Assembly (NCBI GenBank): GCA_016292035.1
Contig: JAEEZR010000014.1
Span: forward strand, 33,171 to 97,170
Reading direction: 5' to 3'
Length of the DNA: 64,000 nt
DNA from: Bacillales bacterium
GTDB taxonomy: Bacteria > Bacillota_I > Bacilli_A > RF39 > UBA660
In this document: piece by piece, positions 6,941-29,383 of the stretch
How the letters are laid out: each line of letters begins with the position of its first letter
Numbering within the stretch: the stretch's first letter is position 1
The notes under the pieces: generated by a model
What the model saw: the letters and a program-made list of their open reading frames with translations, nothing else
Told to the model about the DNA's origin: nothing
Database searches by the model: none
Program-made: the position numbers and the translations under genes

Positions 6941-6966
6941 GAATAAGCCTAGGAATAGGCTTATTC
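6941..6966 (-). terminator. intrinsic terminator after the coupling-protein gene
   Basis: 11-bp perfect stem gaataagccta / taggcttattc with a 4-nt loop, followed by TTTTCATATT on the minus strand. It overlaps the stop codon. Confidence 0.8.
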
Positions 6967-12553: not shown

Positions 12554-12579
12554 AAAACAAAATCATATGATTTTGTTTT
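12554..12579 (-). terminator. intrinsic terminator after the 821-aa gene
   Basis: Hairpin aaaacaaaatca/tgattttgtttt followed by a T run on the minus strand. Confidence 0.7.
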
Positions 12580-15043
12580 ATTTGCCTTTTGTTATTCTTC
12601 CAACAGCTGGTATAAACTCTAAATTACCATCTATTATTTGTACTTCTACTATGCTTCCGTTATCAGAGATTAATAGTTTACTTGTATCTACTCCTTCATT
12701 CATTTCATATTTATTAGATAAATCTACTTTTTCTCCAGTAGTAGCATCTACTGTATATACAAGTACATCGTTGTTATTATAGAATATATAAGAAGCTGTA
12801 TTTCCACTTACTTGTACGTTGTAGTTATAACCTTCTGGGAAAGTGTTTTTAATTATATTACTAATCTCATTAATATAATCATCTTTTAGTTTAATCTTTC
12901 CATCTTTTATATACTTGTTTTTGTTTTGAAGTTCTCCCTTACTTTGTACTCTGTAATCTATCAAATCTGTTTCTGGTATTGTCATCTTAGTATATGTAAT
13001 GATATTAGTTTTATCTCCATATTTTTCTAAATATATATAATCAGCATCTAATACCATGTCATCGTATCCATATTTTTTAAGTTTATTTTTAACATTATAA
13101 CTCTTTCCATTAGTTAAATTAATATTATATACTTTCATTTCATTATTTTGGAATGTTACTTTTATTGATAAAACATTTAGTTCAGGAATAATTGAATAAC
13201 TATATTGAAATAGATTTTGTTTTGATAGTCTCTTATTTAGTTTTTTAACATATTTAGAGTCTATATTTACTTTAAGATCTCCCTTTTTATTTTGATATAC
13301 TATCTTTTCATCTTCTGCTAGTTTATTTACTTTCATGTTGTCTACAACATCTTCTATTTCTTTTTTTATTTCATCTAAACGCTTTTGAATTAAATAATTA
13401 TTATATTCTTCTTTACGTCTTTCATGTAAGTCTTCAATTTGTTTTTCAATTAGTTCCTTATTGTCCATTAGATAATCTTCAGTCACATTAATTCTTTCAG
13501 CTTTAATCTGATAATTAACTATCTTATAATTGTTTGCATCTACTTCTTCAATTACTCCATATTTAATAGCATCTTTAACAGACATAGAATATTGCTCTTT
13601 TAATATATTTGCTGCTTCCTCTTTTGAACATATTATTTCGTCTTGTTTTTGCCAATTTAGATGCACGGTTACACCTGGTGTTTTTAAATAACTATCTGAA
13701 GTAGTATTAAAATAATCTTTAGATTGACCACTATCATAATTTGCATGGCTACTATATAGTTCATAACCATCTTCCGCTTGATTATTGCTTCCTAATACTA
13801 CATGGTAACTATATATAAGCATAAGAAGATATGGATTAGTATAAATAGGTTTGTTATACTTAGCTTCATAGTATTCTCCTAGTAAATCTTCTACTGTGTT
13901 TCTTTCAAGACTCTTATTCTCATAATTTCTTACATTTGTAGATGAAGCTAGACTGGTCATTAAACTATAAAACTTAGCTTCATCAGGTATTATCTTCATA
14001 AACTCATCTTTTATAACATTAATAAAAGGTTTATAGTTGTATTCTCTAAATGGTTCATTGCCTATTATCTCCATCATAGCTTTTACATATCTAGTATCAT
14101 ATCCTGTATCTTCAAAAAAATTATCTTCACCAGCATATTCACTATTAAGAGTTACATTTAATTGTTCGGTTAAACCAACATTGCTATATCCTTCTCCTTG
14201 AAAAGCGTGATATAATTCATGGTAAAATACTGAAATATTTACTTCATCTAATGATGCAGCATAATAAAAATTAATAACATTTCCATATGGCATATATGTT
14301 CCAGCTATATTTTGAGAGTCTTCTGACTCATAACCTTCATGATAAACTATTTTTAATGAATTCATTCTTTCAACTATTAAATCATAGTCCATATAGTCAA
14401 TGTTATCATCTATTACAGATAATCCTTTTAATATCTTGTTTTTTTCATTGTCAGTTAGATTAGGATTAGTCATAATGGCTTCTTTTATATTGGCTATTTT
14501 TTCTTCTTTAGAAAGACTAGTTTCTTCTTCTATTTCATAGTCTTCTATTTCACTAACTACTTCTAATTTATTAGTTTCTTTAGCATATGCTTTTAAATTA
14601 GCAGTACTTGGTATTAAAGAAGAAGCAAGCATTAAAGCTAGAATAGTCTTTTTACCACATTTAACTAGTCTGTGCACTAATTTATCTTCTTTATTGCTGT
14701 TTCCTAGATATAATATTTCACTTTGATGGTTGTATTTAAGGTTTAATTTTTCAAATTCTTCTAGTTCAAGTCTAGTTCCATCAACATGTAAAAATGTATG
14801 AAAATCATTTTCTTTATCATAAAAATGTTGATACTCTACTCCTTCAAATACAACGTTAGAAAGCTTAAGATGATTCTTCACCTTAAGCTTATTAAACATA
14901 GTATTAACTAATACTTTTTCTTCATTTGTTAATTCTAGAGTAACTTTATCATTTACTTTTTTACATGCTATATAACTGCTATCCTTTTTATACACCATGT
15001 ATTCAATATTATTTTCTATAAAAGACAATATAATATTTTTCAT
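12578..15043 (-). CDS. large membrane-anchored protein with an HExxH zinc-metallopeptidase-like motif
   Basis: About 130 aa cytoplasmic N-terminus, one TM helix (KKTILALMLASSLIPS). Extracytoplasmic VFYHELYHAFQGEG. GGAGG RBS upstream. I could not assign a family. Confidence 0.65.
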   Translation of the reverse strand: MKNIILSFIENNIEYMVYKKDSSYIACKKVNDKVTLELTNEEKVLVNTMFNKLKVKNHLKLSNVVFEGVEYQHFYDKENDFHTFLHVDGTRLELEEFEKLNLKYNHQSEILYLGNSNKEDKLVHRLVKCGKKTILALMLASSLIPSTANLKAYAKETNKLEVVSEIEDYEIEEETSLSKEEKIANIKEAIMTNPNLTDNEKNKILKGLSVIDDNIDYMDYDLIVERMNSLKIVYHEGYESEDSQNIAGTYMPYGNVINFYYAASLDEVNISVFYHELYHAFQGEGYSNVGLTEQLNVTLNSEYAGEDNFFEDTGYDTRYVKAMMEIIGNEPFREYNYKPFINVIKDEFMKIIPDEAKFYSLMTSLASSTNVRNYENKSLERNTVEDLLGEYYEAKYNKPIYTNPYLLMLIYSYHVVLGSNNQAEDGYELYSSHANYDSGQSKDYFNTTSDSYLKTPGVTVHLNWQKQDEIICSKEEAANILKEQYSMSVKDAIKYGVIEEVDANNYKIVNYQIKAERINVTEDYLMDNKELIEKQIEDLHERRKEEYNNYLIQKRLDEIKKEIEDVVDNMKVNKLAEDEKIVYQNKKGDLKVNIDSKYVKKLNKRLSKQNLFQYSYSIIPELNVLSIKVTFQNNEMKVYNINLTNGKSYNVKNKLKKYGYDDMVLDADYIYLEKYGDKTNIITYTKMTIPETDLIDYRVQSKGELQNKNKYIKDGKIKLKDDYINEISNIIKNTFPEGYNYNVQVSGNTASYIFYNNNDVLVYTVDATTGEKVDLSNKYEMNEGVDTSKLLISDNGSIVEVQIIDGNLEFIPAVGRITKGK

Positions 15044-15079: not shown

Positions 15080-15427
15080 TTAGTTGTATTTAAGATTTGG
15101 GTATGCTTCTATATCATAGTTGTAAAGTTGTAATACTATTACATTGCATTTAATATCTTCGTGACTTACAAAATCCTTAAGACTTCTATTACTTAATATT
15201 GGATGGCTTGTATGGCCATTATTATCAATTACTTGTCCATTACCAGCATATATTCCTATATGATTATGATACTCTTGTCCGTCATAGCAAGAGCGCCCAA
15301 GCATATCACCAGGTTTAGCATACTCTTCTATTATGCTAGTGTTATTATATCCATCTTGAATTACTTTAACTTTAGAGCCAAAATTGTTTTGACTTTGATT
15401 ATAGAAGTTTTTATTTTTTATCTTTTT
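15080..15427 (-). pseudogene. decayed paralog: leader of the 770-aa protein fused to a catalytic-Cys-less NlpC/P60 C-terminal fragment; RBS and ATG deleted
   Basis: The frame is open from 15427: KKIKNKNFYNQSQNNFGSKVKV...PGDMLGRSCYDGQEYHNHIGIYAGNGQVIDN. The first 18 aa match MKKELKNENFYNQSQNNFGS of the 770-aa protein. No canonical start occurs before the internal M at 15304. The CSGF-type Cys region is absent. Confidence 0.65.
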
Positions 15428-15472: not shown

Positions 15473-15497
15473 AGAAAATAAGTTTAGCTTATTTTCT
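15473..15497 (-). terminator. intrinsic terminator after the 402-aa gene
   Basis: 10-bp stem agaaaataag / cttattttct with a 5-nt loop, followed by TTTTATATA on the minus strand. Confidence 0.75.
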
Positions 15498-16705
15498 TAA
15501 TCATATTGGCAATAATTTTTGTCAATTCGTCCAACTGCACCTTTTGATGAGTCTTGTGGACAGTAGTAATTTTTTTGCCTTGTACAGTTTTTATATACAC
15601 CACTTGTTCCATTAATGTCGCAAACATAAAGTGGCTCTACATGCCAGTCTTCATTGTCAAGTCTAAATGCAAGTCCATATTCTTCAGCGTGATTATGTGC
15701 CCATCTATATGCCCTAGCAGTTTTTTTACCATTTTCTCGTATAGATAAATCTGCAGCTAGTCCCCATCCATGAGGAGAAGTTCCAGGAATCGATGCAACA
15801 GTATTACCGTTACCATTACATGTTCCTCTCGCTTTGCAAATAGCTCCACTAGTTGGATGAGTAGAAGGCACAGGAACATCATTCGTTTTACAATTATCAT
15901 ATTTAGCGCAGCAACAATAGTAATTTTGAGCTTCAATAGATCTAAATCCGTCTTCTTGACCTCTAATTACATCTATTGTTATTCCCTCTTTTGCTGCAGC
16001 AGAAGCAAATTCTTTAATTCTTTGATAGAAGTATTTGTTAAGTCCTTCATCTGATGAACCTTTATACTTCGTATTACCATTTAAGTCCTTGTCATATGCA
16101 AAATAGAATACTCCATTGGTAACTCTTATCATTCCATCGTCACCATTTTCATTGCATAGTCCTTTTTGATAGCAAGATTCATTTTTTATTCTTTTTACTG
16201 ATTCAACACTTGAGGCATTCTCATATCTTTTTTTACTCCACAATGTTAAATCGTCAAAAAAATCTTTTGTAGCTGCAGTTGGATTATTATCAACTTTTGA
16301 TGGATTGTTAGGTTTGTCTATTGTTATACCCCCGTTAAAACTTCCACTTTTCATTATGTAGCAGTTATTTGATTCATTAAATGGGCTAAAAGCACATTTA
16401 GCACATTTTTCAAAGAAACTTTCTTTAGATACAAACTGCATTATTAATCCTACTAATTGTATTACCAAGAAAACTACTACTGCATATAGTGCTTTCTTTT
16501 TTAAAAGATCTAGAGATTCACTAGCTTCTTTTCCTTCTTTTATTACTGCTTTTAAGAATGTAACCATTCCTGTTATTACTAGTAATATAGGTACTATTAC
16601 TTTAATAGCAAAAATGATATATCCCATTATTGTCCATATTGGTGTGAAATTGGAACAGAATTTTGTTGCTTCTTCTTCAGCAGCTAATAATAGTAAATAA
16701 TTCAT
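15497..16705 (-). CDS. fusion protein: N-terminal VirB2/TrbC-like two-helix membrane module plus C-terminal M15B (VanY-like) zinc peptidoglycan peptidase
   Basis: Residues 1-115 are paralogous to the 125-aa protein at 25329-25706. The C-terminus has the LAS/M15 motifs FRSIEAQ, SPHGWGLAADL and EDWHVEP. Many Cys residues. Confidence 0.75.
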   Translation of the reverse strand: MNYLLLLAAEEEATKFCSNFTPIWTIMGYIIFAIKVIVPILLVITGMVTFLKAVIKEGKEASESLDLLKKKALYAVVVFLVIQLVGLIMQFVSKESFFEKCAKCAFSPFNESNNCYIMKSGSFNGGITIDKPNNPSKVDNNPTAATKDFFDDLTLWSKKRYENASSVESVKRIKNESCYQKGLCNENGDDGMIRVTNGVFYFAYDKDLNGNTKYKGSSDEGLNKYFYQRIKEFASAAAKEGITIDVIRGQEDGFRSIEAQNYYCCCAKYDNCKTNDVPVPSTHPTSGAICKARGTCNGNGNTVASIPGTSPHGWGLAADLSIRENGKKTARAYRWAHNHAEEYGLAFRLDNEDWHVEPLYVCDINGTSGVYKNCTRQKNYYCPQDSSKGAVGRIDKNYCQYD

Positions 16706-16761
16706 CTAATTCACTTTCCTTACATTAATATAATAGCATAGCTTAATTCTTTAGTAAATAT

Positions 16762-16788
16762 AAAAAAATAGTGGCATTGCCACTATTT
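16762..16788 (-). terminator. intrinsic terminator after the 292-aa gene
   Basis: Stem aaatagtggc / gccactattt with a 3-nt loop and a T run on the minus strand. Confidence 0.75.
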
Positions 16789-17661
16789 AACTAGTTTTAG
16801 TTTTATATCTTGTCCTTTTAAAGAGCTATTTGAGTTTGGCAAATAATCATTTATTTGAATACTCTTTCCATCCTCTTCTATGTAGAATATGTCAGTGTCA
16901 GTTATTTGCTTTTCTTTTAATTCTTTAGAAGCATCTGAATAGTTTTCATTTAATAAATACATTCTTGTAATTATTAGTTTTCCGTCTTCTACTATGTATG
17001 TTCCTCTATAGCTTTCTACATCTGATTTAATATCAAATACATTGTCTTTATATATGATTAGTGATAATTGTTCACTTTCATATTTATTAACAATATCTTC
17101 ACTTGTTTTAGTTCTAATATAGTTTAGGTATTCATTTATTGTGTTTTGAGCTAGTACTAGTGGATCATTATTTTTATTTAAATAATAATTAACTAAGTTT
17201 AATTGTGCTCCGTCACCTTCTATCACAAATGTTTCAGATAGTGGAATATTTTCATTAATACTACTTTCTCTTACCCACACTATTCCATAGTCACTATAAA
17301 TAGCTGATAATACTCTTTTTATAGTTAATTTATCATCATCTATTTTATAGATACCACGAGTGTGTTCTTTTATAGCATCTGGCGTAGTTGTTTCTATTTC
17401 AAAAATACCATTATTAAATAACTTGATTGTTATTTCAGTATTAAAGTCAATAGCATTTACTACTTTATACTCCTCTTTTAAGTCATCAAGTGTAGTTGAT
17501 ACCATTAAAGAATCAATTTCACTTTCTTTTGCTTCTAATTTTTCAGCTTCTAGTTTTTTTAAATAATTATCAGTTGCTAGGTAAGCACCAAGTAAAAAAA
17601 CTATTATTAATATAATAGATACTACTATTATAAGAACAGAATTAGTTTTTTTACTTTCCAT
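16783..17661 (-). CDS. bitopic membrane protein with an internally duplicated ectodomain (possible VirB8/TcpC-like role, by position only)
   Basis: N-terminal TM helix and short coiled coil. Two repeats share RG(I/T)Y..(D/E)D.KL.I.R ... F.IE.DG ... YL. Confidence 0.6.
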   Translation of the reverse strand: MESKKTNSVLIIVVSIILIIVFLLGAYLATDNYLKKLEAEKLEAKESEIDSLMVSTTLDDLKEEYKVVNAIDFNTEITIKLFNNGIFEIETTTPDAIKEHTRGIYKIDDDKLTIKRVLSAIYSDYGIVWVRESSINENIPLSETFVIEGDGAQLNLVNYYLNKNNDPLVLAQNTINEYLNYIRTKTSEDIVNKYESEQLSLIIYKDNVFDIKSDVESYRGTYIVEDGKLIITRMYLLNENYSDASKELKEKQITDTDIFYIEEDGKSIQINDYLPNSNSSLKGQDIKLKLVK

Positions 17662-19442
17662 TATAGTCCTCCACCTGAACCGAAGCTATCTAACTCTTCT
17701 TGAGTTGCTATTACATTTATTCTCATTCTTCTTGATCCACAAACAAATAGAGCTTCTCCTTGGTTATATCTCTTAATTGATTCTTTTTCTTGATCATTTA
17801 AATCAATTAATTTAGATAAATCTTCAACAGCTTGTTTCTTAAGACCCATTACTAGGTAGTAAGAAGCATTATCGAATATAGCTTTACCATGAACAATTAC
17901 TTCCGGTGAAGCAAAGTCTGTTGGTTGTTGTGTAATTATAATAGTACCAGTATTGTACTTTCTACTTCTTCTTTGAACTTGCGCTAAGAATTCAGCTCCT
18001 AGTGTGTTTCTATCAGCAAGTAATGTGTGTGCTTCATCAACCATAAGGATTGTATTAATATTTTTATCAAGACATAATCCCCATGCGTGTTTTAATATGT
18101 TGAAGAATAATGCGTTTCTAATATTTGAATCGGCATTCATTAATTCTCTTATATTAAATACGATGAAATCACTATTAGGCATTACTGTTGTGTGTCCTGT
18201 AAAGTAATATCTTAATTCTTTAGTTAAAGGTCTAATCTTTAACTCTAGTTTTTCCATTACTTCTTTTTCACGTGTGGCTTCAATCATTGAATGAAGACGA
18301 CCATTAACAGTTGCATAAACGTCATCAAATGTAGGGAACATATCACTAGTTAGTTTAGTGAAGTCAGTAGATGCATCTATCTTATATCTCTTATAAGTAT
18401 CTTGCACTACTTCACTGAACATTGTTAATGTATCTTCTTCAATATCTGGACTGTAGTACTTCATGAATGCTTTTAATGTTTGAAGAGAACGAGTAAATAC
18501 TGCATATCCTGCTCCTTGAATTTCTTCTTCATCAACATCAGCTATTATTTCTAGAGGGTTAATCATACCATATGATCCACCACGTCCTAAGTCTATGAAG
18601 TCGCCTCCATAAAGCTTAGTCATTTCTTCTAGTTCACCTTCAGGGTCTATTGCAACTATCTTATGACCATTTCTGATATTTGATCTAAGAAGTATTTTTG
18701 CTGCAGTAGATTTACCACTACCTGAAGTACCAAGCATAATCATGTTGGCATTATTTCTGTTAAATTCTTTTTTAATTTGGTATAAGAATTGGTTAAATAA
18801 TATTATACCTCCAGAAAAGTCTACACCTAGTAAGCATGAAAGACCTGGGTCTTTGATGCTATCAAATACGAATGGGTACATTGCACTCATTGTAACTGTT
18901 GGAATAGGTGTTCCTATTCTTTCTTCTATTTCACCATCTTTAAATAATGGCAAACAACTCTTAAGTAAGTTTTCTTGTTCGAATCTAAGGATAACTCCTT
19001 TCATTCCCATAGCATCTAGGTAGTTTTTAACTTGTAATTTTTTATTTTCAAGTTCTTCTGCAGAGTCTGCACTTATTAGTAGATGCATTTGGAAATCGAA
19101 AATTCTAGCTTGAGTTGCAGTTAGCATTGTTATGAAGTTTTCAATGCTTTCGTAGTCTTGTCTAATTCTTTCTTGAATTGTTCTATCATATTCATTTTGA
19201 TATCTCATTTTTAAATCTGCTATTTCTTTATTAAGCATTTTTGATAATACTGAGAAATCAATAGGAATATGTTTAATTATTACTTTGATACCTGAGTATT
19301 GTGTTAAATTAGCTAGGTATCCTTCACTTATCATTTTTGGATAACTTATTACTGTCATGATTGTGCAGTACTTACCACTGATAATCATGTCTCCAGCTCT
19401 AAATTCTAGGCCTTTAGGCGCTAATTGACTTTTTAAATTCAT
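17661..19442 (-). CDS. virB4: VirB4-family T4SS ATPase, C-terminal (ATPase) part
   Basis: Walker A MLGTSGSGKST, Walker B ILMVDEAHTLL, IIITQQPTDF. Starts with the ATG of an ATGA overlap on the upstream ORF. Confidence 0.88.
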   Translation of the reverse strand: MNLKSQLAPKGLEFRAGDMIISGKYCTIMTVISYPKMISEGYLANLTQYSGIKVIIKHIPIDFSVLSKMLNKEIADLKMRYQNEYDRTIQERIRQDYESIENFITMLTATQARIFDFQMHLLISADSAEELENKKLQVKNYLDAMGMKGVILRFEQENLLKSCLPLFKDGEIEERIGTPIPTVTMSAMYPFVFDSIKDPGLSCLLGVDFSGGIILFNQFLYQIKKEFNRNNANMIMLGTSGSGKSTAAKILLRSNIRNGHKIVAIDPEGELEEMTKLYGGDFIDLGRGGSYGMINPLEIIADVDEEEIQGAGYAVFTRSLQTLKAFMKYYSPDIEEDTLTMFSEVVQDTYKRYKIDASTDFTKLTSDMFPTFDDVYATVNGRLHSMIEATREKEVMEKLELKIRPLTKELRYYFTGHTTVMPNSDFIVFNIRELMNADSNIRNALFFNILKHAWGLCLDKNINTILMVDEAHTLLADRNTLGAEFLAQVQRRSRKYNTGTIIITQQPTDFASPEVIVHGKAIFDNASYYLVMGLKKQAVEDLSKLIDLNDQEKESIKRYNQGEALFVCGSRRMRINVIATQEELDSFGSGGGL

Positions 19443-20059
19443 CCTGGCATCACCGTCCCAAATTCTGTTTTAACCCCATCGTTAAAGAATCCATCTAGAA
19501 GTACTCTTAGATCGTCATTACTTGTTTGTGAGGCTACTAGGCCACATGATGCTAATCCACTTACTAAGTTTTGAATTTTCTTTTGCATCATTTCAGGTTT
19601 CTTTTCTCTGAATAAAATATAGTATTCAGTGTCAGCAACACCTACTTCTTTAGACATGAACATATTAGCTTTGTTAATATCTTGCATTACTAACTTCTTC
19701 ATTATAGGAGTTTGTACGTTGTTATAAAGAAGCTGCAATTGAGATAAATAAACATTGATGTCTACAGGTCTATCTGCTACTATAATCCAAAACTCATAAT
19801 CAAGTGTATTATAGAAATTTCTTAAATTGTAAATAACGTTTTTTTGGCTATCATTATCCATGATAAATATATTTTTAGGCTGAATTTTAACACCTGTTAC
19901 TTGCATACCATCTTCAAGCTGTATAGCTCCATTTAGTATGGACTTAACAGGAAGCCATCCTTCAGCAAATCTACTATTGTTGTTCTTGCCCGTATTCACT
20001 TCTAACACACCAACCTTTCCATCTATATACTCTTCTATTTGAGAAGAATGCATATACAT
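19439..20059 (-). CDS. virB4: VirB4-family ATPase, N-terminal domain encoded as a separate ORF (start uncertain)
   Basis: WLPVKSILNGAIQLEDGMQVTGVKIQPKNIFIMD resembles Gram-positive VirB4 N-termini. 206 + 593 aa gives a normal VirB4 length. The first 86 nt overlap the upstream ORF; in-frame GTG codons near 20008-19999 are alternative starts that shorten, but do not remove, this overlap. Confidence 0.7.
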   Translation of the reverse strand: MYMHSSQIEEYIDGKVGVLEVNTGKNNNSRFAEGWLPVKSILNGAIQLEDGMQVTGVKIQPKNIFIMDNDSQKNVIYNLRNFYNTLDYEFWIIVADRPVDINVYLSQLQLLYNNVQTPIMKKLVMQDINKANMFMSKEVGVADTEYYILFREKKPEMMQKKIQNLVSGLASCGLVASQTSNDDLRVLLDGFFNDGVKTEFGTVMPG

Positions 20060-20297
20060 CTTTTATAAAGCACAATACATTGTGATAGTATGGCACAGGG
20101 ACCACTAGAAGTGATCCTATGCCTATTGGTAATATTTTTATTATTGTAGCTCCTAGTTCATTACTTGGAATAGCAAAGAACATTATTAATGTTAATGCCA
20201 ATCCAGTAAGTGCTATCATTAAGTCTACTGGTCTAAAAATATTAAATATCAATTTACCACTTTTTGTATTAGCTGGAATCAAATACATATTATTCAT
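19974..20297 (-). CDS. PrgI/VirB3-like small membrane protein
   Basis: 107 aa with two TM helices. The position immediately upstream of VirB4 and the N-terminal pattern IPANTKSGKLIFNIFRPVDLMIALTGLAL match the PrgI/TcpE type. Confidence 0.6.
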   Translation of the reverse strand: MNNMYLIPANTKSGKLIFNIFRPVDLMIALTGLALTLIMFFAIPSNELGATIIKILPIGIGSLLVVPVPYYHNVLCFIKDVYAFFSNRRVYRWKGWCVRSEYGQEQQ

Positions 20298-20318
20298 ATT
20301 CTCTTTTCCTTTCTAAAA

Positions 20319-22397
20319 CTAATTGTTTGAATTATTATCAGATGGTTTAGGAGCATCATCATTCCCTCTTAAGCCAGGTGATTTTCTATATGAATTAGTT
20401 TCAGGATCTTCATTTCTCTTTTCTGTTCTAACATAGTGAGACTGTTTTTTAAATGCTTTTCTATTATTTTCTACCGTTTCTTTAGTATTTTCAAGATCTC
20501 TTCTCAATGAATCTAATTGAACGTTAGCGTTAATTTGACTTTGACTACTTAATCTAGCTGCTTGGTCAATATCACTATAGTGTTGAATGATTCTATCAGC
20601 CATACCATTGTCATTAACATACTGGTTGTAGTCTTGAACATATTGAGCAATGTCTGCATCTTCTCCAGTTAGGGCACTTGGATCCCCAAGATTAAGCATT
20701 TGATCGTAGAATACTTCTCTCTGTCTGTTATATTCTTTTCTAACTGCTTCTTCCCTTTCTTGAATCCTTCTATTGTCTTCAGCTATTTCTTCAGCTGTAT
20801 AGTTATATGTTTCACTATCAAGTAGTTTTTGTTGTTCTGATCTCATTTTCATTAGCTCAGGATCATTAGCAAGGACATCTTCTATAGAACCGTGTCCTCT
20901 TTTAAAACTATTATCAATAGCGTTAGCCATTTGATTTCTTAATTCATCAGATCTTCTGTCAGAGTTTATAGTTGCTTCTAATGGTTTAGAATCTCTTGCA
21001 AATTGCTCTTCTGCGTCGCTAATTTGCTTATCATATTCTTTCATAGATTTTTCATTTCTAGCATGTGCTCCGAAGAAGTTTTCAACAGCGCCCCAAGCAT
21101 AAGGAATTGTTCCTCCTGCTCCATGCATGTTTCCACCGAATGTGTATTGATTCTTGATGTTTCCTACTCCGCCTTTTACAGCTTCACTTATACTCTTAGC
21201 TTTAGATGCATTTTGTCCGCCTTGGTATGCTCCTCTTACAGAACCAACAAGTCCTGCTAAAGGTCCTTGACCTCCAGCTGCTCCAGCAGCAAATCCACCA
21301 ATTGCACCAACAGTTCCTCCAACAATTCCAGAAAGAACGCTTCCAAATGATCTTCCACCGCTTCCAGCAATCTTTGTTCCAATTGCATCCTCTATTAATT
21401 TTGGTAATTCTTTAGCAGCTTGTAATACACCTATTACAATTATTACTTTTAGGATAATTCCTACTCCGCCTAATACATTTAAGTTATTTAGTATTATTGA
21501 CATTATTACAAATGCTAATTGGAATGTAGCTACCCGTATAAATACCTGTGCATATATTCCAAAATAAGTTGTAAAGAAAGTTTTAATCCTATCAGATTTT
21601 TGCGTTGGATCAATTGATAATATTACTGGTATTGGATATACTATTTGTAGTACTAGTAGTCTAAAAATACGACCTACTAATTCAAATACTGCTGTAAAAA
21701 AGTAATAGCATAACACACATCCCGCAAAGAATGGAATAATTGGGGTAAAATTGAAATATGCTGTGTAATCTGAAAGTGCATCTATATCTTTTTCACCTTT
21801 TATTACTGAACTATATTCCACACAATATCTTTGAGTTGAGCCTTCAGCACATTTAATAATTGGGGTAAAAAATAATGTCCATATCTTATTTGTAAATGAT
21901 CTAGCTTCTACTTCGCTTCCAAATGATTGACTGTTAACATTCTCTCTTCCATATATAATCATTGGTATTAAACCTGGAGTGGTTGAACCATCTTCGGTTT
22001 GATATCCAACAAGAACCCTTGTTTCAAAAACCGCTAGTTGTTCAAACATAAATGATGATGTAACTAGAAGAATAACAGCAATTAAAACATTTTTAACTAT
22101 TTTCATTCCAGTATTTTGACCATCTTTAATTTTTGAAGGGTCAATTATGAATGTTATTAGCATTACCGCTACTCTAAATAGTGCATAGATAGCAGCTAAG
22201 ACCATAAGTCTTTGTAATATACTATGAATGATTTCGCCATCTAATCCAATTTTAGCGCCTATTTGTATTATTTCATAGAAAGCTCTTAATAATAAAGCTG
22301 CTGCTTTATATACTGCTTCGTCTATAAATATGCAAACTGCTGTTAATGCATTTTTAATGGCTCCAGCTATTGAAATACCATTTAATAAAAATCGCAT
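20319..22397 (-). CDS. polytopic membrane protein, VirB6/TcpH/PrgH-like channel-component candidate
   Basis: At least 7 predicted TM helices in the first ~370 aa, a Gly-rich segment (GGTVGAIGGFAAGAAGGQGPLAG), and a coiled-coil-like polar tail. Confidence 0.6.
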   Translation of the reverse strand: MRFLLNGISIAGAIKNALTAVCIFIDEAVYKAAALLLRAFYEIIQIGAKIGLDGEIIHSILQRLMVLAAIYALFRVAVMLITFIIDPSKIKDGQNTGMKIVKNVLIAVILLVTSSFMFEQLAVFETRVLVGYQTEDGSTTPGLIPMIIYGRENVNSQSFGSEVEARSFTNKIWTLFFTPIIKCAEGSTQRYCVEYSSVIKGEKDIDALSDYTAYFNFTPIIPFFAGCVLCYYFFTAVFELVGRIFRLLVLQIVYPIPVILSIDPTQKSDRIKTFFTTYFGIYAQVFIRVATFQLAFVIMSIILNNLNVLGGVGIILKVIIVIGVLQAAKELPKLIEDAIGTKIAGSGGRSFGSVLSGIVGGTVGAIGGFAAGAAGGQGPLAGLVGSVRGAYQGGQNASKAKSISEAVKGGVGNIKNQYTFGGNMHGAGGTIPYAWGAVENFFGAHARNEKSMKEYDKQISDAEEQFARDSKPLEATINSDRRSDELRNQMANAIDNSFKRGHGSIEDVLANDPELMKMRSEQQKLLDSETYNYTAEEIAEDNRRIQEREEAVRKEYNRQREVFYDQMLNLGDPSALTGEDADIAQYVQDYNQYVNDNGMADRIIQHYSDIDQAARLSSQSQINANVQLDSLRRDLENTKETVENNRKAFKKQSHYVRTEKRNEDPETNSYRKSPGLRGNDDAPKPSDNNSNN

Positions 22398-22413
22398 AAT
22401 TACTCCTTTCTAG

Positions 22414-23340
22414 TTATTTAATACCACACAATACATCACTATATCCGAATAATCCGAACACCATATCTATTATTGTTGGTAATAACAATAATATTATAAC
22501 TATCACTATTTTTTTAACCACCTTCATAAACGCAGGTTTTAATTCGCTTTTTTCGTTAGTTATTACTGATACTAAGTCTATCATGCTTAGTATTATTGTT
22601 AGAACTATTGCCACTATTTTAATAATAGTAAATGCTTTATCAAGCATGTTAGCTAGTGAACCTTTTTCTGATGCACTTCCTAAATAGTCTACGCAGAATC
22701 CAACTTTACTTGAAATATTTGGATTGTCAATAAGTTTTTGGTTATTAACAAAATCTTCATATTCTGCTGTTAATTGTTTTATTTCATTTATTCTCTCTTG
22801 TGATAAGTTAGATGAGAATATTAATTGTTTTGATACATTTTTAGTGCAGTGATTAAACACCGAATCGCAATCCGCTATTAGCCAGTATCCTTCATAAAAG
22901 TCAAATGTTATTAAGCTTGATAATTCTGGGTTTTGAAGAACCATTGTCGGACAAAAAGCTCCACCATTTCTTGTGAATTGGTCAATTACACTTCCTCCTG
23001 ACATAGTTCCGGCTTGTTTTTGCATTTTATATCCTTTAGCAGTTTCATCAGCAGAATAGTTTTCTGTCTTATTGGAACCTGGATTACTTGCGGGCTCATA
23101 CTCATATACAACTACTTCTTTTCCAAGTTTTACCGCTCTCATTTCAATTTTTTTAGTTGAATAGTTGACATACACTGTGAAATCTTTGATATAGAAATTC
23201 TTTTTAGCGCTGTCGCCAGGCACATAAATATCTCCATAATCGCATCTAAAATCCCAATCACCTGTGTATGCATTTAATTTGGTGACAGGAATAATTGATA
23301 ATAATAATATTAATACTATATACGTTAATTTTTTACTCAT
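22414..23340 (-). CDS. secreted Cys-containing protein ending in a VirB2-like two-helix module
   Basis: Signal peptide MSKKLTYIVLILLLSIIPVTKLNA. The last ~95 aa (FCVDYLG...IIKIVAIVLTIILSMI...IVIVIILLLLPTII...LCGIK) form a TM hairpin. Confidence 0.65.
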   Translation of the reverse strand: MSKKLTYIVLILLLSIIPVTKLNAYTGDWDFRCDYGDIYVPGDSAKKNFYIKDFTVYVNYSTKKIEMRAVKLGKEVVVYEYEPASNPGSNKTENYSADETAKGYKMQKQAGTMSGGSVIDQFTRNGGAFCPTMVLQNPELSSLITFDFYEGYWLIADCDSVFNHCTKNVSKQLIFSSNLSQERINEIKQLTAEYEDFVNNQKLIDNPNISSKVGFCVDYLGSASEKGSLANMLDKAFTIIKIVAIVLTIILSMIDLVSVITNEKSELKPAFMKVVKKIVIVIILLLLPTIIDMVFGLFGYSDVLCGIK

Positions 23341-23421
23341 AAAAAAACTCCTACTTTTCCCTAAGTAAATTATACATGATAATTACTTATAAATCAATAG
23401 GAGTTAATAGTCTAATGGTCT

Positions 23422-25209
23422 TTATTCATTTTGATACTTAGCGACAATATTTCCCCATTTTTTACCATTTTCATCAACACAATCCCAGTGTAATTGACCG
23501 TTACTTGAATCTTTGACTGCACTAATGTTTTTAAATCCATTGTTCTTTCCTTTTTGTATTAAAGCTACTTTACAGTATGCTTCTGCATAGGCTTCTTCTA
23601 GTTTGTCTGTATATATAATTGCAAAGCTTCCTTCTGCACGTCTTCTAATTTCCGCAAATTCTAGTCTGTCGTGTGCTTCTCCTAGATTTCTAACATATTC
23701 TATTAATTGATCGTCACTTAATTCATCGTTGATAAATTCATCGTAGTATTTTAACACATAATCAACGTTTTCAGATGATGAATTGCTCTTGCCTTTTGTA
23801 GTTGCGACAAATCTTCTACTTCCAGAAGAGTCAACACATTCCCATGATGTTCCGTTTAGTTCTACAGTTTGACCAGTATAGCATTTAGTTTGATAATATA
23901 CTTTTTCCAAATAATGAATATTAGAATTTGTAGCACTAAGTACTTCTTGTAGTTTATCATCGTCTTTTAGAACTGTTCCTAATGATCTTATAAATAATTC
24001 TTTTTCTTTGTCATTTAAATTATTTTGATAAAAATCATTATATTTTTCCGTAACGTATTCTACTGATGTATAATACTGGACTCCATCATGTTCTTGTTTT
24101 ACTTGTAGTAATGAGCATCCACTACTGAATGGGTGAGCTGCACATTTCGCACACGCTTGCCAATCGGTATCTGATCCTATAGCACTTATAACTATTGTAA
24201 CTAGCTGTGCTACTAGGAATACAGCAACAGCTGCTATTATTTTATTTTTAATTAGGCTAAATGGATTAGTATCTTTGTCCGCTGCAATAGCTTTGGTTAA
24301 TTCTACCATGCTCATAATTATTAGTAGTAAAGGCACTAATATTTTAATCATGAACATTACATATCCGCCAATAACCCATACACCTTCTAATTTTGAACAG
24401 TAGTTAACATCTTCAATTACCGGTAATGAAGAGGTTTCACTTTTGCTACCACTATTTGATGAATCATTATTGCTATTGCTACTGCTATTGCTATCATTTT
24501 TATACTGAGAGAAATCATATGTTGTATATAATTCACATGAGTATTTTGTTCCTCCCTGATGTTCACATACAACTTTTAGTTCTGGACAATTTCCATCCGA
24601 AAAATCTCTAGCTATAGTCCCATATGAATTATATGTAGAGCTAGGTATATTTAATCCTTCTTTAGAAAAACTTACACCTACTATATTTGTTCCATCACTA
24701 ATTACTGAAGCTTTATCTATGACTAATCCTTCTTGATTTTGAACATCATAACTACATGTATATGTTTTTGCATCGGATTTAAATACAAATTCACCGTTAG
24801 ATGCACCAGTTTTTAAATTAATTAAACTCTTTTTAATGCCCACACTACTCTTTTGTGAATTTTCGTCCTTATAAATATAATTTTTTTCACCTTGTGTATA
24901 CACGTATATTTGATTTGGGCATTCAAAAGTATCATGTCCAGTTATAGATTTTGTCAAGAAATCATTGTGCGTAAGATCAGTCGCTATGTTTAGAAGTGCT
25001 GCTCCAGAATTAAATGAATCTATAATTTTAGGACTTGGCATAGTTGTGCCATCGCTTGCTATAAAGTATTTTAACGTTGTAGTATCATCTACTTTGTATT
25101 CACAGTATGCACATGCATATGTTTCACTGTCACACAAACTTGCATTTAACTTGATTGGAGCTAATATAAATGCAGTAAGCATTATTATTAATAATCCTAT
25201 TTTTTTCAT
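23422..25209 (-). CDS. secreted Cys-rich protein with a central VirB2-like two-helix module and a repeated C-terminal domain
   Basis: Start moved to ATG 25209 (AAGGTGA RBS; MKKIGLLIIML signal peptide). S/N-rich linker, then YVMFMIKILVPLLLII...AAVAVFLVAQLV...CAKCAAHPFSSGC, paralogous to 25329-25706. Confidence 0.7.
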   Translation of the reverse strand: MKKIGLLIIMLTAFILAPIKLNASLCDSETYACAYCEYKVDDTTTLKYFIASDGTTMPSPKIIDSFNSGAALLNIATDLTHNDFLTKSITGHDTFECPNQIYVYTQGEKNYIYKDENSQKSSVGIKKSLINLKTGASNGEFVFKSDAKTYTCSYDVQNQEGLVIDKASVISDGTNIVGVSFSKEGLNIPSSTYNSYGTIARDFSDGNCPELKVVCEHQGGTKYSCELYTTYDFSQYKNDSNSSSNSNNDSSNSGSKSETSSLPVIEDVNYCSKLEGVWVIGGYVMFMIKILVPLLLIIMSMVELTKAIAADKDTNPFSLIKNKIIAAVAVFLVAQLVTIVISAIGSDTDWQACAKCAAHPFSSGCSLLQVKQEHDGVQYYTSVEYVTEKYNDFYQNNLNDKEKELFIRSLGTVLKDDDKLQEVLSATNSNIHYLEKVYYQTKCYTGQTVELNGTSWECVDSSGSRRFVATTKGKSNSSSENVDYVLKYYDEFINDELSDDQLIEYVRNLGEAHDRLEFAEIRRRAEGSFAIIYTDKLEEAYAEAYCKVALIQKGKNNGFKNISAVKDSSNGQLHWDCVDENGKKWGNIVAKYQNE

Positions 25210-25303
25210 TTTTATCACCTTTTTTGTACAAGTTAAGTCTATCATATGAAGTTATTTTTTTCAATAAAAGTCTTATTTCTTTTGATTATTTGATGTAAAT
25301 AAA

Positions 25304-25323
25304 AAACTGCCATTTGGCAGTTT
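25304..25323 (-). terminator. intrinsic terminator after the 125-aa pilin-like gene
   Basis: Stem aaactgcc / ggcagttt with a 4-nt loop and TTTTTTATTTA on the minus strand. Confidence 0.75.
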
Positions 25324-25328
25324 AATTA

Positions 25329-25706
25329 TTAATTTCCAAAGTCACTAGTTGGTTGAATAAATTCACAACCTGTTGAGAATGGACTGAATACACATTTACC
25401 ACAAGTTTTGTACGCTTGACTAGAGCTTACTAGTCCCATAATAATACCAACGATTTGGATTACTAGGAATACAGAAACAGCATATACAACTTTCTTAATT
25501 AATATACCTTGTGCTTCCTTAGTCTTCTTTTCGTCTCCTGTAGTTACAGCCTTTGCTAAAGTTAACATACCAGTAATGATTAAAATAATTGGTACGATTA
25601 CTTTAATGATAAATACTGCATATCCAGCAATTGTGAATAGTAGTGAGAATTTATCACAGAAAGCTTGTGCATCAGAAGCAGCATCCATTAGTAATAAATA
25701 ATTCAT
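25329..25706 (-). CDS. VirB2/TrbC-like pilin-like protein (stand-alone two-helix module)
   Basis: 125 aa with two hydrophobic helices separated by a charged loop (TGDEKKTKEAQ). Conserved Cys before helix 1 and a C.KC..SPF...C motif after helix 2. GGAGAG RBS and its own terminator. Confidence 0.6.
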   Translation of the reverse strand: MNYLLLMDAASDAQAFCDKFSLLFTIAGYAVFIIKVIVPIILIITGMLTLAKAVTTGDEKKTKEAQGILIKKVVYAVSVFLVIQIVGIIMGLVSSSQAYKTCGKCVFSPFSTGCEFIQPTSDFGN

Positions 25707-25791
25707 ATATATCTCTCCTTCTTTATAATCTAATTTTATTATAAAAAAAGTGTGATGTCAAACAAATGCGTCTAACTTTACACTTTGTTTA

Positions 25792-26796
25792 TTAAAACTT
25801 AAACATCCCTAGTAATTTATTTTTGTTTTCTACTACTCCATCATCAGATACATTTTGTTTAATGAATCCTAGTTTTGATAGTAGTTCATTAACTTTATTA
25901 CTTGGTAAGTTTCTTTCATCTATAGATGGTAAATTATAGAATACTTTTGCCTTTGTTTCATATTCAAACTCAGTTAATTCACTTTGTTTAATATTACTTT
26001 TGTTAAGTACTACTTTACCATTTTTAGTAGTTTCAAATATATTCTTATTAGCCATTAATAGCTTGTTTAGTTTAACTGTTGATGGCTCTACTAAGTAGAT
26101 TACTTCTGAACAAATATCAGGATCTACATAGTTATTTAAGTCTACTAGAATGATATTTTTTTCATTCTTTTTCATTAATTCTTTAGGTAAATTTTCACTA
26201 GTAGTTGATACTAATTCCTTATCATCAAAGAATGTGAAGTCGGTTTTATCTACTTCTATTGCCGCTACATCATAGTTTTCTTCTAGTTGTTTTTTCATTA
26301 CATATGTAAGTGTTGTAGCTCCAGCACTACCAGTTAATGATTTAATTCCTATTATTCTACTCTTAGCTATTTGAGTTTCTACTACAGTTTCTTTTTCAAC
26401 TGTAGTTTCTACTTGATTAACATCATGGATATGCGCTACATCACGGTAGCTATTAGGATTTTGTAGTAGGTACTTAATACCTTCCGTATTTCTTGTAAAA
26501 TTATATATACCCATTGATATTAATTTTGATAGATAGGAGCGTGATGAACTCTCTTCAGAGTCATCTAGTAAAAGAATGACTTTGCTCATATCTAAATTTA
26601 TACTTAATTTTTGTAAATTATCTGTATTTTGATAGTCTTTTATTGCAGTTATATCTAGAATCATCCTATCAAAGTAGAAATTGCTGAATTGATTTATTAT
26701 ATCATCAGCTTCAAATACACCTTCAATTGATTTAATTACTTCAATATCAAGGCCCATTAGCATTTCTTTATATTTATTTGATATTATTACATTCAT
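25792..26796 (-). CDS. TadZ/CpaE-like protein (receiver-like N-domain plus ParA/MinD-like domain with degenerate Walker A)
   Basis: IIGIKSLTGSAGATTLTYVM sits where KGGxGKT(T/S) normally lies. ILVDLN and IYLVEPS strands follow the MinD/ParA fold pattern. The call also rests on context. Confidence 0.5.
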   Translation of the reverse strand: MNVIISNKYKEMLMGLDIEVIKSIEGVFEADDIINQFSNFYFDRMILDITAIKDYQNTDNLQKLSINLDMSKVILLLDDSEESSSRSYLSKLISMGIYNFTRNTEGIKYLLQNPNSYRDVAHIHDVNQVETTVEKETVVETQIAKSRIIGIKSLTGSAGATTLTYVMKKQLEENYDVAAIEVDKTDFTFFDDKELVSTTSENLPKELMKKNEKNIILVDLNNYVDPDICSEVIYLVEPSTVKLNKLLMANKNIFETTKNGKVVLNKSNIKQSELTEFEYETKAKVFYNLPSIDERNLPSNKVNELLSKLGFIKQNVSDDGVVENKNKLLGMFKF

Positions 26797-26816
26797 TCTT
26801 TTCCCCTCCGTGTTTA

Positions 26817-27290
26817 TTATAAATTGTCGTATGCATTATATATAACTTTAGTTTCCCCTGTTATAGGCACATTAATCTTAATCCATATTATAGGTAGCTC
26901 TAGACTAATAAAAGTAGCTACTTTATAATATGTTCCTTGAGTAGATGTTATTTTTTTAATGCAATATCCCCCTGGATAATCATTTCCTGCTCCAATGGAA
27001 TCAGGACATTTAATATCTGAATAATTATACCCTATTTCATTTAGGTATAAATATATTTTATCCTCCGTAGCTGGATTTACTTTGCTTTTGATTTTATCAA
27101 TGTCAGTTCCGCTTTCCTTAACATCTGAGCTAGTATTAAAGCCCTCACTTTCTTCAATAAGACTTATGATCCTATTTTTGACTTTGAAGGCTTTAGAATA
27201 ATTAACTGATATTGCTAAATAAGCGGAAAATAATACGATAAATGTTGCAACAAAGCCAAGCATCCAACCTGAGCCTATTGCGTGTTTCAT
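26817..27290 (-). CDS. TadE/pseudopilin-like membrane-anchored protein
   Basis: N-terminal hydrophobic segment GSGWMLGFVATFIVLFSAYLAISV, small size, and position directly after the pilin gene. Confidence 0.45.
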   Translation of the reverse strand: MKHAIGSGWMLGFVATFIVLFSAYLAISVNYSKAFKVKNRIISLIEESEGFNTSSDVKESGTDIDKIKSKVNPATEDKIYLYLNEIGYNYSDIKCPDSIGAGNDYPGGYCIKKITSTQGTYYKVATFISLELPIIWIKINVPITGETKVIYNAYDNL

Positions 27291-27307
27291 TCTCTATATC
27301 ACTCCGA

Positions 27308-27568
27308 TTAATTTAGACAAGTGCTTCCATCTAGTGAACAGCAATATTTTCTATCTCTTGCACTAGCTGATGTTAAATCTGTACCTGGATCAGTTGTACC
27401 CTCATCCCTATTTATTGCCTTGGCATTTTCTCCATAAATAGAACATGTATTATCTACTATAGATTTTTGAATTGCTGGCCATACTAGTGTATAGAAAAGT
27501 GTTGCTACTGCAGCGATTGCTACTACAGTAATAACTGTTGTACTTAATTCTCCTGTAGCTTCTTTCAT
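27308..27568 (-). CDS. small pilin candidate of the Tad-like system (Flp-like by size and position, atypical leader)
   Basis: 86 aa: MKEATG ELSTTVITVVAIAAVATLFYTLVW, then a 4-Cys C-terminal part. GGAGG RBS and its own consensus promoter. Confidence 0.55.
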   Translation of the reverse strand: MKEATGELSTTVITVVAIAAVATLFYTLVWPAIQKSIVDNTCSIYGENAKAINRDEGTTDPGTDLTSASARDRKYCCSLDGSTCLN

Positions 27569-27599
27569 TAATATCTTCCTCCTTTATTTTTATAGTTTT

Positions 27600-27628
27600 A
27601 TTATACCTAGTTTTTATAGTGTTATCAA
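27600..27628 (-). promoter_or_regulatory. sigma-70-type promoter for the pilin gene
   Basis: Minus strand TTGATA (27628-27623), 17 nt, TATAAT (27605-27600), about 30 nt upstream of the ATG. Confidence 0.65.
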
Positions 27629-27677
27629 TATTTTTTGATTATATGTACATTTTTTGTGTAAATAAAAACTTCTGCAA

Positions 27678-29365: not shown

Positions 29366-29383
29366 AACTTTCCTCCTTCTTTA

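Follow-up and report, generated by a model that had tools for sequence, protein, structure and literature searches.

Until late 2025, the textbook view was that the type IV secretion systems (T4SSs) of Gram-positive bacteria are devoid of VirB2-type pilins (bioRxiv 10.64898/2025.12.18.695078; PMC12102498). In the literature consulted, two exceptions are named. The first concerns the Patescibacteria, in which arrays of 2-11 PF18895/VirB2-like genes are found beside VirB4 (Wang et al. 2023, PMC10633639; Quinonero-Coronel et al. 2025, PMC12102498); the profiles used to find these pilin genes were of the VirB2 type, PF18895 among them, and the T4SS pilin array is essential (PMC10633639; PMC12102498). 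The second is PrgF (PrgF_B2) from the Enterococcus faecalis plasmid pCF10, described in a December 2025 preprint as the first VirB2-like protein to have received experimental support in a Gram-positive T4SS; ter Beek et al. propose there to recognize such proteins by a length of 50-150 aa, two transmembrane (TM) helices in a PrgF-like topology, a gene near virB6 and a confident AlphaFold pilus model on a pentameric VirB6-like protein (ipTM > 0.65) (bioRxiv 10.64898/2025.12.18.695078). The PF18895 family, its "pilin" label and pilin arrays are therefore not new, and with PrgF the existence of conjugative pili in Gram-positive bacteria has become an issue. Here, we analyze a stretch of 64,000 nucleotides (hereafter the window) of contig JAEEZR010000014.1 from a Bacillales bacterium (assembly GCA_016292035.1), in which a two-helix module flanked by cysteines recurs in four proteins. 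The locus is an apparently chromosomal supercluster of uncultured gut Bacilli that comprises a Tad-like operon and a Gram-positive-type (MPF_FATA-like) T4SS. Coordinates are those of the window and, unless otherwise stated, all features lie on the minus strand.

The initial annotation had located the module in four open reading frames (ORFs), all of which are present. The stand-alone protein (125 aa, 25329-25706), a candidate major subunit, starts with an acidic 16-aa N-tail, followed by Cys17, helix 1, a K-rich loop, helix 2 and the motif C102-x2-C105-x8-C114. In the 402-aa protein (15497-16705; 16 Cys), the module is N-terminal (aa 1-125, 16331-16705) and is followed by an extracellular linker and a VanY/M15B peptidase domain (together 15497-16330; VanY itself aa 221-355, ~15641-16045). 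The third protein is a Cys-rich exported protein of 607 aa when counted from the first ATG (23422-25245; 595 aa from the likely start at 25209), in which a signal peptide ending in KLNA, an N-terminal ectodomain, the module (aa 275-390, 24076-24423) and a C-terminal ectodomain succeed each other. The last one, an exported protein of 308 aa whose gene (22414-23340) is immediately upstream of a VirB6-like gene, consists of a signal peptide, a variable ectodomain and a divergent C-terminal module (aa 225-300, 22441-22668).

The first three copies are readily related by pairwise comparison. Using composition-corrected BLASTP, the 125-aa protein matches the N-terminus of the 402-aa protein with an E value of 4e-34 (50% identity over 123 aa) and the middle of the 607-aa protein with an E value of 2e-23 (37% identity over 103 aa). 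The 308-aa protein did not give any significant BLASTP match with the 125-aa protein (E 0.45) and a barely significant one with the 607-aa protein (E 0.003 over 26 aa). A hidden Markov model (HMM) of the module was built from 75 stand-alone homologues, namely the 125-aa protein of the window and 74 proteins from elsewhere. It matches exactly four of the 690 ORFs of the window: the 125-aa (E 4.9e-41), 402-aa (E 2.2e-34), 607-aa (E 1.7e-30) and 308-aa (E 4.1e-11; 5.8e-10 in a further profile match) proteins, the next best value being 0.041. Since the last of these matches spans profile positions 17-93, the fourth copy is real but limited to the two helices. The fourfold recurrence that had been proposed is therefore made of three clear paralogues and of a fourth copy detectable by profile only. 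Altogether, the sequences indicate that the four copies are paralogues of one hairpin belonging to a PF18895/Mbov_0395-type family.

The size of this family depends on how it is searched. A single-sequence, word-indexed search with the 125-aa protein returned five relatives, and an exhaustive profile search yielded 5,863 cluster representatives with E<=1e-3, of which 1,582 have E<=1e-10. The module is found either alone (~110-160 aa) or at the N-terminus, in the middle or at the C-terminus of proteins of 200-670 aa. PF18895 (T4SS_pilin) is matched by 33 of the 75 stand-alone homologues at E<=0.01 (best E 1.6e-6), with near full-length coverage in the alignments shown, which are those of the window protein and of three fused homologues; the fused homologues score 17-21 bits. 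Among the 120 listed relatives, it is also the only precomputed Pfam label, and 40 of them carry it. Among the NCBIfam models, NF045849 (Mbov_0395 family pilin-like conjugal transfer protein) is matched by six of the 75 homologues (best E 3e-6), MMCAP2_0566 by 12 and Mbov_0396 by seven. The window proteins themselves have no NF045849 match at E<=1, and the curated cut-off of this model is not reached. The profile search against Pfam and NCBI pilin families that had been recommended thus led to the PF18895 and Mbov_0395 families but revealed no similarity to TrbC/VirB2. Weak NCBIfam matches to Mbov_0396/MMCAP2_0566 at ~50-112 had also prompted the idea that the module is homologous to the first hairpin of the VirB6-like protein; this was rejected, the hhalign probability against 52 VirB6-like sequences being 0.9%.

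The position of the module genes is the second line of evidence. Downstream of them lies the core of a T4SS. It starts with a polytopic membrane protein of 692 aa (20319-22397), called VirB6-like on the basis of sub-threshold matches to MMCAP2_0566 (E 2.7e-11), Mbov_0396 (E 2.5e-8) and pLS20_p028 (E 7.8e-5), and for which homologues were found in 51 related loci. A VirB3/TcpE-like protein (19974-20297; weak match) comes next, followed by the VirB4 N-terminal domain, encoded as a separate ORF of 206 aa (19439-20059; positions 98-280 of the Mbov_0397 model, E 2.9e-14), and by the VirB4 ATPase of 593 aa (17661-19442; positions 294-891, E 6.4e-105). The T4SS setting expected for PF18895 is therefore found, with the order modules, VirB6-like, VirB3-like and VirB4 in the window and in at least 43 related loci. 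Because the downstream genes match the Mbov_0396 (VirB6-like) and Mbov_0397 (VirB4) family models, this arrangement amounts to positional orthology with genes of Mycoplasma integrative and conjugative elements (ICEs), the adjacency of the latter being deduced from consecutive locus tags. In size, topology and gene position, the 125-aa protein also corresponds to the description given by ter Beek et al., with its 125 residues, two TM helices, N-out/C-out topology and a gene located two genes upstream of the VirB6-like one; in the interval from VirB4 to the Tad operon it is, besides the VirB3-like protein, the sole small two-TM ORF (>=60 aa) near VirB6.

This organization is not particular to the window. 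A one-genome-per-species scan, in which related loci were searched with a 7-sequence alignment, yielded 80 loci, all from uncultured gut Bacilli (with record titles such as Mollicutes, Tenericutes, Erysipelotrichaceae or Clostridium sp. CAG:628). Module genes were counted over 83 sequences, that is to say these 80 loci, two short metagenome contigs and the window itself: one copy is present in 25 loci, two in 19, three in 14, four in 20, five in four and seven in one. The initial annotation considered multiple copies in one locus as non-standard. In fact, 58 of the 83 loci contain at least two, usually 2-5, and arrays of 2-11 had been published for Patescibacteria. The layout is fixed: RcpC, CpaF, TadB, TadC, Flp, a 157-aa protein and TadZ come first, and the module gene(s) after them precede the genes of the VirB6-like and VirB3-like proteins, of the VirB4 N-domain, of VirB4 and of a hydrolase. 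The distance between the TadZ-position gene and the next module gene does not exceed 200 nt in 60 of 65 loci, nor does that between the last module gene and the VirB6-like gene in 49 of 51. In these 49 loci, the last module gene encodes a C-terminal-module protein of the 308-aa type (28 loci) or a stand-alone copy (21 loci).

Regarding topology, the AlphaFold2 (AF2) model of the 125-aa protein is a helical hairpin (predicted local distance difference test score, pLDDT, 85.3) formed by residues 4-56 and 59-93, and the CxxC motif lies on a short third helix (97-107). This agrees with the two hydrophobic helices and polar loop first recognized from the sequence alone, and hydropathy is consistent with two TM helices whose termini are both extracytoplasmic. 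Across 441 non-redundant modules, the inter-helix loop contains on average 5.7 K/R (net charge +2.8), as compared to 0.6 in the N-terminal flank and 1.3 in the C-terminal flank, both of which are net negative; the positive-inside rule is obeyed by 98% of them. Judged from this charge bias, both module ends are located outside the cell and the K/R-rich loop inside, in agreement with the VanY domain, which needs an outside location, and with the signal peptides of the 595-aa and 308-aa proteins. It follows from this topology that the conserved cysteines are all extracytoplasmic, as had been anticipated.

Promoter-like and terminator-like signals also accompany the 125-aa gene. A sigma-70-like promoter match (TTGACA-17-TAAAAT, 11/12; 25733-25761), which is a consensus match only, lies in the 85-nt gap upstream of it, and a terminator-like hairpin with an 8-bp stem and a T-run (25304-25323) is found 6 nt past its stop codon. 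In the same loci, terminator-like hairpins follow 24 of 138 stand-alone module genes and 31 of 974 other ORFs (odds ratio 6.4, Fisher p 2.5e-9), and the hairpin sequences differ between clades. The predicted terminator pattern agrees with a subunit that is produced in larger amounts than the proteins encoded downstream of it.

On this basis, we propose that the modules form a PF18895-type family of VirB2-like subunits, a reading to which we would give a probability of roughly 0.55. The 125-aa protein, with its own promoter-like and terminator-like signals, would be the abundant major subunit and would assemble on the VirB6-like platform into a VirB2-like conduit or a short pilus through the wall. 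The fused paralogues would enter the same membrane pool by means of the same hairpin and would dock to this structure or co-assemble with it. They could thereby place at the machine a VanY-type peptidoglycan peptidase (402-aa protein) and hypervariable Cys-rich ectodomains (595-aa and 308-aa proteins, candidate adhesin or tip subunits). Besides the data above, the Cys frame, the fast divergence of exposed parts and the repeated fusions to extracytoplasmic hydrolases, all described below, speak for this reading.

Several observations weigh against this proposal. The 125-aa protein of the window scores only 12.1 bits with PF18895 (E 0.21; model positions 6-69 of 71), for a cut-off of 26.6, and TM hairpins also give spurious matches of a strength similar to those of the family, for example with Frizzled (2.6e-5); the family assignment therefore rests on the whole family and on synteny. 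Similarity to proven pilins was not detected either. Using hhalign, the probability was 0.6% with PF04956 VirB2, for an alignment of 31 Agrobacterium-type sequences so narrow (54-85% identity) that a broader TrbC/VirB2 profile might still connect the two, and 1.2% with pCF10 PrgF, used as a single sequence and the sole Gram-positive VirB2-like protein to have been tested by experiment. PF04956 appears neither in the family listing of the window proteins nor in that of the 75 homologues, and PrgF itself shows a weak leaning towards Maff2 and DUF4134, and none towards PF18895. A Foldseek search of the PDB with the AF2 monomer gave nothing below E 2.7, with generic helical hairpins on top, this kind of search being uninformative for a two-helix fold. 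The family HMM, when run against PDB sequences, retrieved only TM segments of rhodopsin, AT1R and Shaker at E>=0.015, which are spurious. As to the genomic context, no relaxase was found among the ORFs scanned, so the conjugative role of the T4SS is unproven. Finally, at least 13 genomes of one CpaF clade (cluster 7) contain a Tad operon and a single conserved stand-alone copy but lack a T4SS in the surrounding 10 kb; this is the principal caveat. What justifies the term "VirB2-like" is thus the architecture of the module, its topology, the position of its genes and its name in the catalogues, and not a demonstrable homology to a structurally characterized pilin; of the VirB2/TrbC architecture initially put forward, the two-helix hairpin and the N-out/C-out topology stand, but the resemblance does not extend to sequence or profile.

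The alternative to be taken most seriously, even if we consider it somewhat unlikely, is that the hairpin serves for anchoring or docking only: inserted N-out/C-out, it would bind laterally to the membrane platform of the T4SS (or of the Tad system) and localize hydrolases and ectodomains there, without ever polymerizing or being released from the membrane. In that case, the role of the stand-alone copy would be that of a small membrane subunit, either structural or regulatory. The frequency of fusions speaks for this possibility. Among 477 non-redundant modules, 133 (~28%) are fused to large domains, which is awkward for a homopolymeric filament, the module being N-terminal in 28 of them, C-terminal in 93 and in the middle in 12. 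The N-terminal modules are mostly joined to enzymes, which would need tethering only. In the 402-aa protein, the assignment of the peptidase to M15B is confirmed by PF02557 (E 1.4e-10; 41.5 bits for a cut-off of 25) and by the zinc/catalytic motifs SPHGWGLAAD (SxHxxGxAxD, residue 310) and EDWH (ExxH, residue 352). N-terminal modules precede VanY (in the window and in locus L048), Peptidase_M15_4, Peptidase_M23, Amidase_3, Peptidase_C39_2, GDSL/SGNH (twice), a metallo-beta-lactamase fold with Big_2, or Listeria-Bacteroides repeats. Most of these partners are peptidoglycan-active folds from unrelated superfamilies, which argues that the hairpin has been repeatedly recruited as the N-terminal membrane element of wall hydrolases; the peptidase fusion, initially regarded as non-standard, is not confined to the window and has counterparts with at least six different hydrolase folds. 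The missing similarity to any structurally proven pilin is also in line with an anchor. On the other hand, most modules (344 of 477) stand alone, and the terminator-like hairpins behind their genes are in line with a subunit made in large amounts. A simple anchor hardly accounts for arrays of divergent stand-alone copies, and an ordinary single TM helix would do for anchoring. Moreover, a T4SS pilin array is essential in Patescibacteria, where pilin genes were found with profiles including PF18895 (PMC10633639; PMC12102498). A holin-like function of the hydrolase fusions was also considered and rejected in view of their N-out/C-out topology, of their location in a Tad/T4SS cluster and of the absence of visible phage genes (PHROGs was not searched).

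The partners of C-terminal and central modules are of another kind. No Pfam or PDB match was obtained for their ectodomains, and PDB sequence searches with the 595-aa, 308-aa and 402-aa proteins gave nothing useful. The ectodomains of the 607-aa protein have almost no homologues in related loci. In the nearest loci (L007, L008, L010 and L014), VirB4 and CpaF are 88-89% identical to those of the window, the stand-alone module 45-50% and the VirB6-like protein 35%, and the ectodomains are unalignable. Such fast divergence is typical of exposed parts, and the hypervariability of the ectodomains suggests diversifying selection on the parts displayed at the surface. By eye, two similar segments of ~100 aa, YVTEKYNDFYQNNLNDKEKELFIRSLG and YVLKYYDEFINDELSDDQLIEYVRNLG, each ending in a Cys pair, can be distinguished in the C-terminal ectodomain of the 607-aa protein (23422-24075), and this looks like an internal duplication.

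The cysteines raise a question of their own. C17, C102, C105 and C114 do not vary among the three strong copies and the proteins closely related to them, and are at least 90% conserved over the 75 diverse homologues. The Cys frame initially described as common to all copies is thus confirmed for three of them, but the 308-aa copy has a single Cys on either side of the hairpin, C216 ahead of helix 1 and C305 behind helix 2, that is 1+1 and not 1+3. Both types are widespread: in the 477 non-redundant modules, the flanking Cys are 1+3 in 362 cases and 1+1 in 73 (together 91%), and odd totals are rare. The spacing of the CxxC motif is invariant, and the third Cys occurs 6-11, most often nine, residues later. 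The module proteins are also the most Cys-rich of the large window proteins (4.0%, 3.2%, 2.8% and 1.9%, compared with a typical ~0.8%). A disulfide linking the two extracellular ends of the module can reasonably be proposed from these data: the Cys before helix 1 would pair with a Cys after helix 2, tying the ends together, and the two remaining Cys would pair with each other. Two sequences that lack both the N-flank Cys and the first Cys of CxxC hint at the pairs C17-C102 and C105-C114, two sequences being too few to settle the point. One could alternatively assume that the four Cys bind a metal, like a zinc knuckle made of CxxC, the third Cys and the N-flank Cys, instead of forming disulfides. 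The invariant CxxC with a further Cys 6-11 residues on does resemble a zinc-knuckle spacing, and metal binding would suit an anaerobic gut bacterium. Obligate anaerobic Firmicutes, indeed, generally avoid exported disulfides. We nevertheless regard this as unlikely, for the 1+1 variant, to which the 308-aa copy belongs, cannot make a four-ligand site but can make one disulfide, and the joint loss of two Cys is that expected for a bonded pair. The Cys counts are furthermore even in the exported parts of all four module proteins of the window, and a membrane-anchored thioredoxin is encoded in the window. The latter (55543-55986) has a thioredoxin fold (PF00085, E 1.9e-8) with a CSHC motif, and could be a candidate extracytoplasmic thiol-disulfide oxidoreductase able to service the Cys-rich exported proteins of the cluster.

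A more ambitious version of our proposal can be imagined, in which a PF18895 conduit or pilus is stapled by disulfides, incorporates the hydrolase and ectodomain fusions as minor or tip subunits, and is coupled to the Tad system. The staple would be the counterpart of the cyclization of TrbC and VirB2, the mature ends of which are joined by a head-to-tail peptide bond. If true, such a filament would bring along the heads that cut the wall and recognize the target as it crosses the wall of the donor and perhaps also that of the recipient. We consider this complete picture quite unlikely. The tie to TrbC/VirB2 cyclization, already suggested in the initial annotation, is an analogy only. The 125-aa protein has no more than a 16-residue acidic N-tail devoid of signal-peptide features.

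Conversely, the stand-alone protein might belong functionally to the Tad-like system, as the product of the last gene of that operon, and the fused copies on the T4SS side would be derived paralogues. This operon (25792-31311) comprises seven genes and is directly upstream of the modules. Significant Pfam matches are limited there to RcpC/CpaB (30499-31311) and to the CpaF/TadA-type ATPase (29384-30472; T2SSE), and the TadB-like, TadC-like, 86-aa Flp-like, 157-aa and 334-aa TadZ-position proteins are named from their position and from their conservation in 47-67 related loci. Several features speak for a Tad role, to begin with the short distance between TadZ and the module gene mentioned above (60 of 65 loci). 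The genomes of CpaF cluster 7 point in the same direction, since an LtaS-like sulfatase gene takes the place of the T4SS downstream of their single module gene. Like the modules, the Flp-like pilin is Cys-rich, with four Cys. Nonetheless, members of the wider family accompany VirB4/VirB6 where no Tad operon has been reported, as in Patescibacteria and in Mycoplasma ICEs, and in addition to the 43 loci with both Tad and T4SS, three have a T4SS and modules without Tad. The Tad-only state is restricted to one clade and may reflect a single loss event, a T4SS elsewhere in those genomes being possible, and the 125-aa gene appears to have its own promoter. That the protein belongs to the Tad system is improbable in our opinion. 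The Tad-only clade includes loci L004, L017-L021, L025, L026, L029, L034, L036 and L056, in which an MBOAT-like gene, recognized by eye, is also found downstream. The Flp-like pilin candidate (27308-27568) has its four Cys in the exported part (4.7% Cys) and no Pfam match, and a promoter-like match (11/12; 27628-27600) and a terminator-like hairpin (27689-27668) lie upstream of its gene.

Finally, the idea that the copies resemble each other through the composition of their hydrophobic helices and not through homology, to which the non-significant BLASTP result for the fourth copy and the spurious GPCR matches obtained in family HMM scans of TM hairpins could lend some credit, has a negligible probability and is already refuted for copies 1-3, considering the composition-corrected E values (4e-34 and 2e-23), the common invariant positions that are not hydrophobic (C17, G28, P39, C102, C105, P109 and C114), the at least nine orders of magnitude by which the HMM separates the four ORFs from the other 686, and the hhalign probabilities below 5% between the module and each of six other membrane-protein families of the cluster (VirB6-like, VirB3-like, TadB, TadC, 157-aa protein and Flp-like), which indicate that the shared signal is not generic hydrophobicity.

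The remainder of the window can be described briefly. Its G+C content is ~29% and almost every gene is on the minus strand, so that transcription runs from high to low coordinates through the Tad-like operon, three module genes, the T4SS core and further genes including the VanY fusion and VirD4. The Tad-like operon and the Gram-positive-type T4SS are contiguous and co-oriented in the window (6961-31311) as in 43 related genomes (loci L006-L082), and their junction always holds pilin-like module genes. The splitting of VirB4 into two ORFs is maintained in 44 related loci, and the VirB3/TcpE-like ORF overlaps the start of the 206-aa ORF by ~85 nt. Downstream of VirB4 are encoded a 292-aa protein, the 402-aa VanY fusion, proteins of 821, 770 and 251 aa, and a VirD4-type coupling protein (6961-9348; PF02534 E 2e-48; CD1115 family E 4.6e-85, above the cut-off). 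A terminator-like hairpin (16766-16788) separates the 292-aa and VanY-fusion genes. The 821-aa protein (12578-15043) has no family match but contains, by eye, an HExxH-like motif, FYHELYHAF. The 770-aa protein (10179-12491), a candidate hydrolase likewise without any family match, ends with a region that by eye looks C39-like or papain-like; in the nearest loci L008, L010 and L014 its homologues are encoded directly after VirB4, which is the position of PrgK in pCF10. A 74-aa ORF (15080-15304), the sequence of which includes GDMLGRSCYDGQEYHNHIGIYAGNGQVIDNNGH, lies between the 821-aa and VanY-fusion genes; by eye it resembles the C-terminal half of an NlpC/P60-type domain and is possibly a gene remnant.

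On the other side of the cluster, between RcpC and a sortase gene, an exported protein of 211 aa (31401-32036) has a signal peptide ending in SLNA, four Cys and a TM helix at its C-terminus. Among the sub-threshold matches, it is the one that the module HMM ranks first (E 0.041); a relationship with the module is improbable. The next region (32096-34970) encodes a 519-aa protein with a C-terminal sortase domain, on the minus strand, beside a plus-strand protein of 401 aa showing a weak similarity to a GBS104-like tip-pilin Ig domain. This pair may constitute a third, sortase-dependent surface-fibre system adjoining the Tad/T4SS cluster. Housekeeping genes (LeuRS, TsaD, RmuC, ABC-F, P-type ATPase and others) are found on both flanks, and no integrase, any more than a relaxase, was detected among the ORFs scanned; the cluster therefore looks chromosomal. 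PLSDB plasmids did not give any match by megablast with the region or by tblastn with the 125-aa protein.

In the literature searched, we found no description of the abundance of this family in gut Bacilli, of a fixed Tad-module-T4SS supercluster, of the flanking Cys frame or of the recurrent fusions to hydrolases and ectodomains. Our data would thus reveal a second pilin-like family, unrelated in sequence to PrgF and abundantly represented in gut Bacilli that are uncultured but otherwise ordinary. Provided that the hairpin serves for assembly, the fusions suggest how the T4SS of a monoderm crosses a thick wall and recognizes its targets, and they represent natural constructs for probing incorporation into a pilus. 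The extracellular Cys frame, in an anaerobe, offers a simple biochemical handle through redox state, mutagenesis and mass spectrometry.

Several parallels can be drawn with known systems. One is with the PF18895 arrays of Patescibacteria (candidate phyla radiation, CPR), which share with the window a two-helix hairpin with a core of ~70 aa, a location adjoining VirB6, VirB3 and VirB4 of a monoderm-type T4SS, arrays of divergent paralogues and no evident relaxase. In contrast, the hosts are here gut Bacilli and not CPR, the window proteins score below the Pfam cut-off, and the Pfam model does not include the 1+3 Cys by which the module is flanked in their subfamily. In this subfamily, fusions to hydrolases or ectodomains are frequent, and the genes are wedged between a Tad-like operon and a T4SS. 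These distinctive features are not mentioned in the Patescibacteria papers (PMC10633639, PMC12102498). The Mycoplasma ICEs (NF045849) display the same order, with a pilin-like gene followed by those of a VirB6-like TM protein and of VirB4, but matches remain below the curated cut-offs and the 125-aa protein of the window has none to NF045849. Like this protein, PrgF is small, with two TM helices and a charged cytoplasmic loop, and is encoded just upstream of VirB6-like, VirB3-like and VirB4 genes; it is nevertheless shorter (75 aa) and lacks the Cys frame, and no fused paralogues have been reported for it. With VirB2/TrbC (PF04956), the module has in common a hairpin with its termini outside and its loop on the cytoplasmic/lumen side, as well as ends that would be covalently joined, here by the proposed disulfide instead of cyclization; it differs by the absence of a long cleaved leader and by its monoderm host. 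Finally, the 402-aa VanY fusion, encoded two genes downstream of VirB4, is reminiscent of the VirB1-type hydrolases of Gram-positive T4SSs, such as PrgK and TraG of pIP501, which are also membrane-anchored peptidoglycan hydrolases encoded within a T4SS cluster. Its catalytic domain, however, is M15B/VanY and not SLT, CHAP or LytM, and its anchor is a hairpin of the pilin family in place of a generic TM segment.

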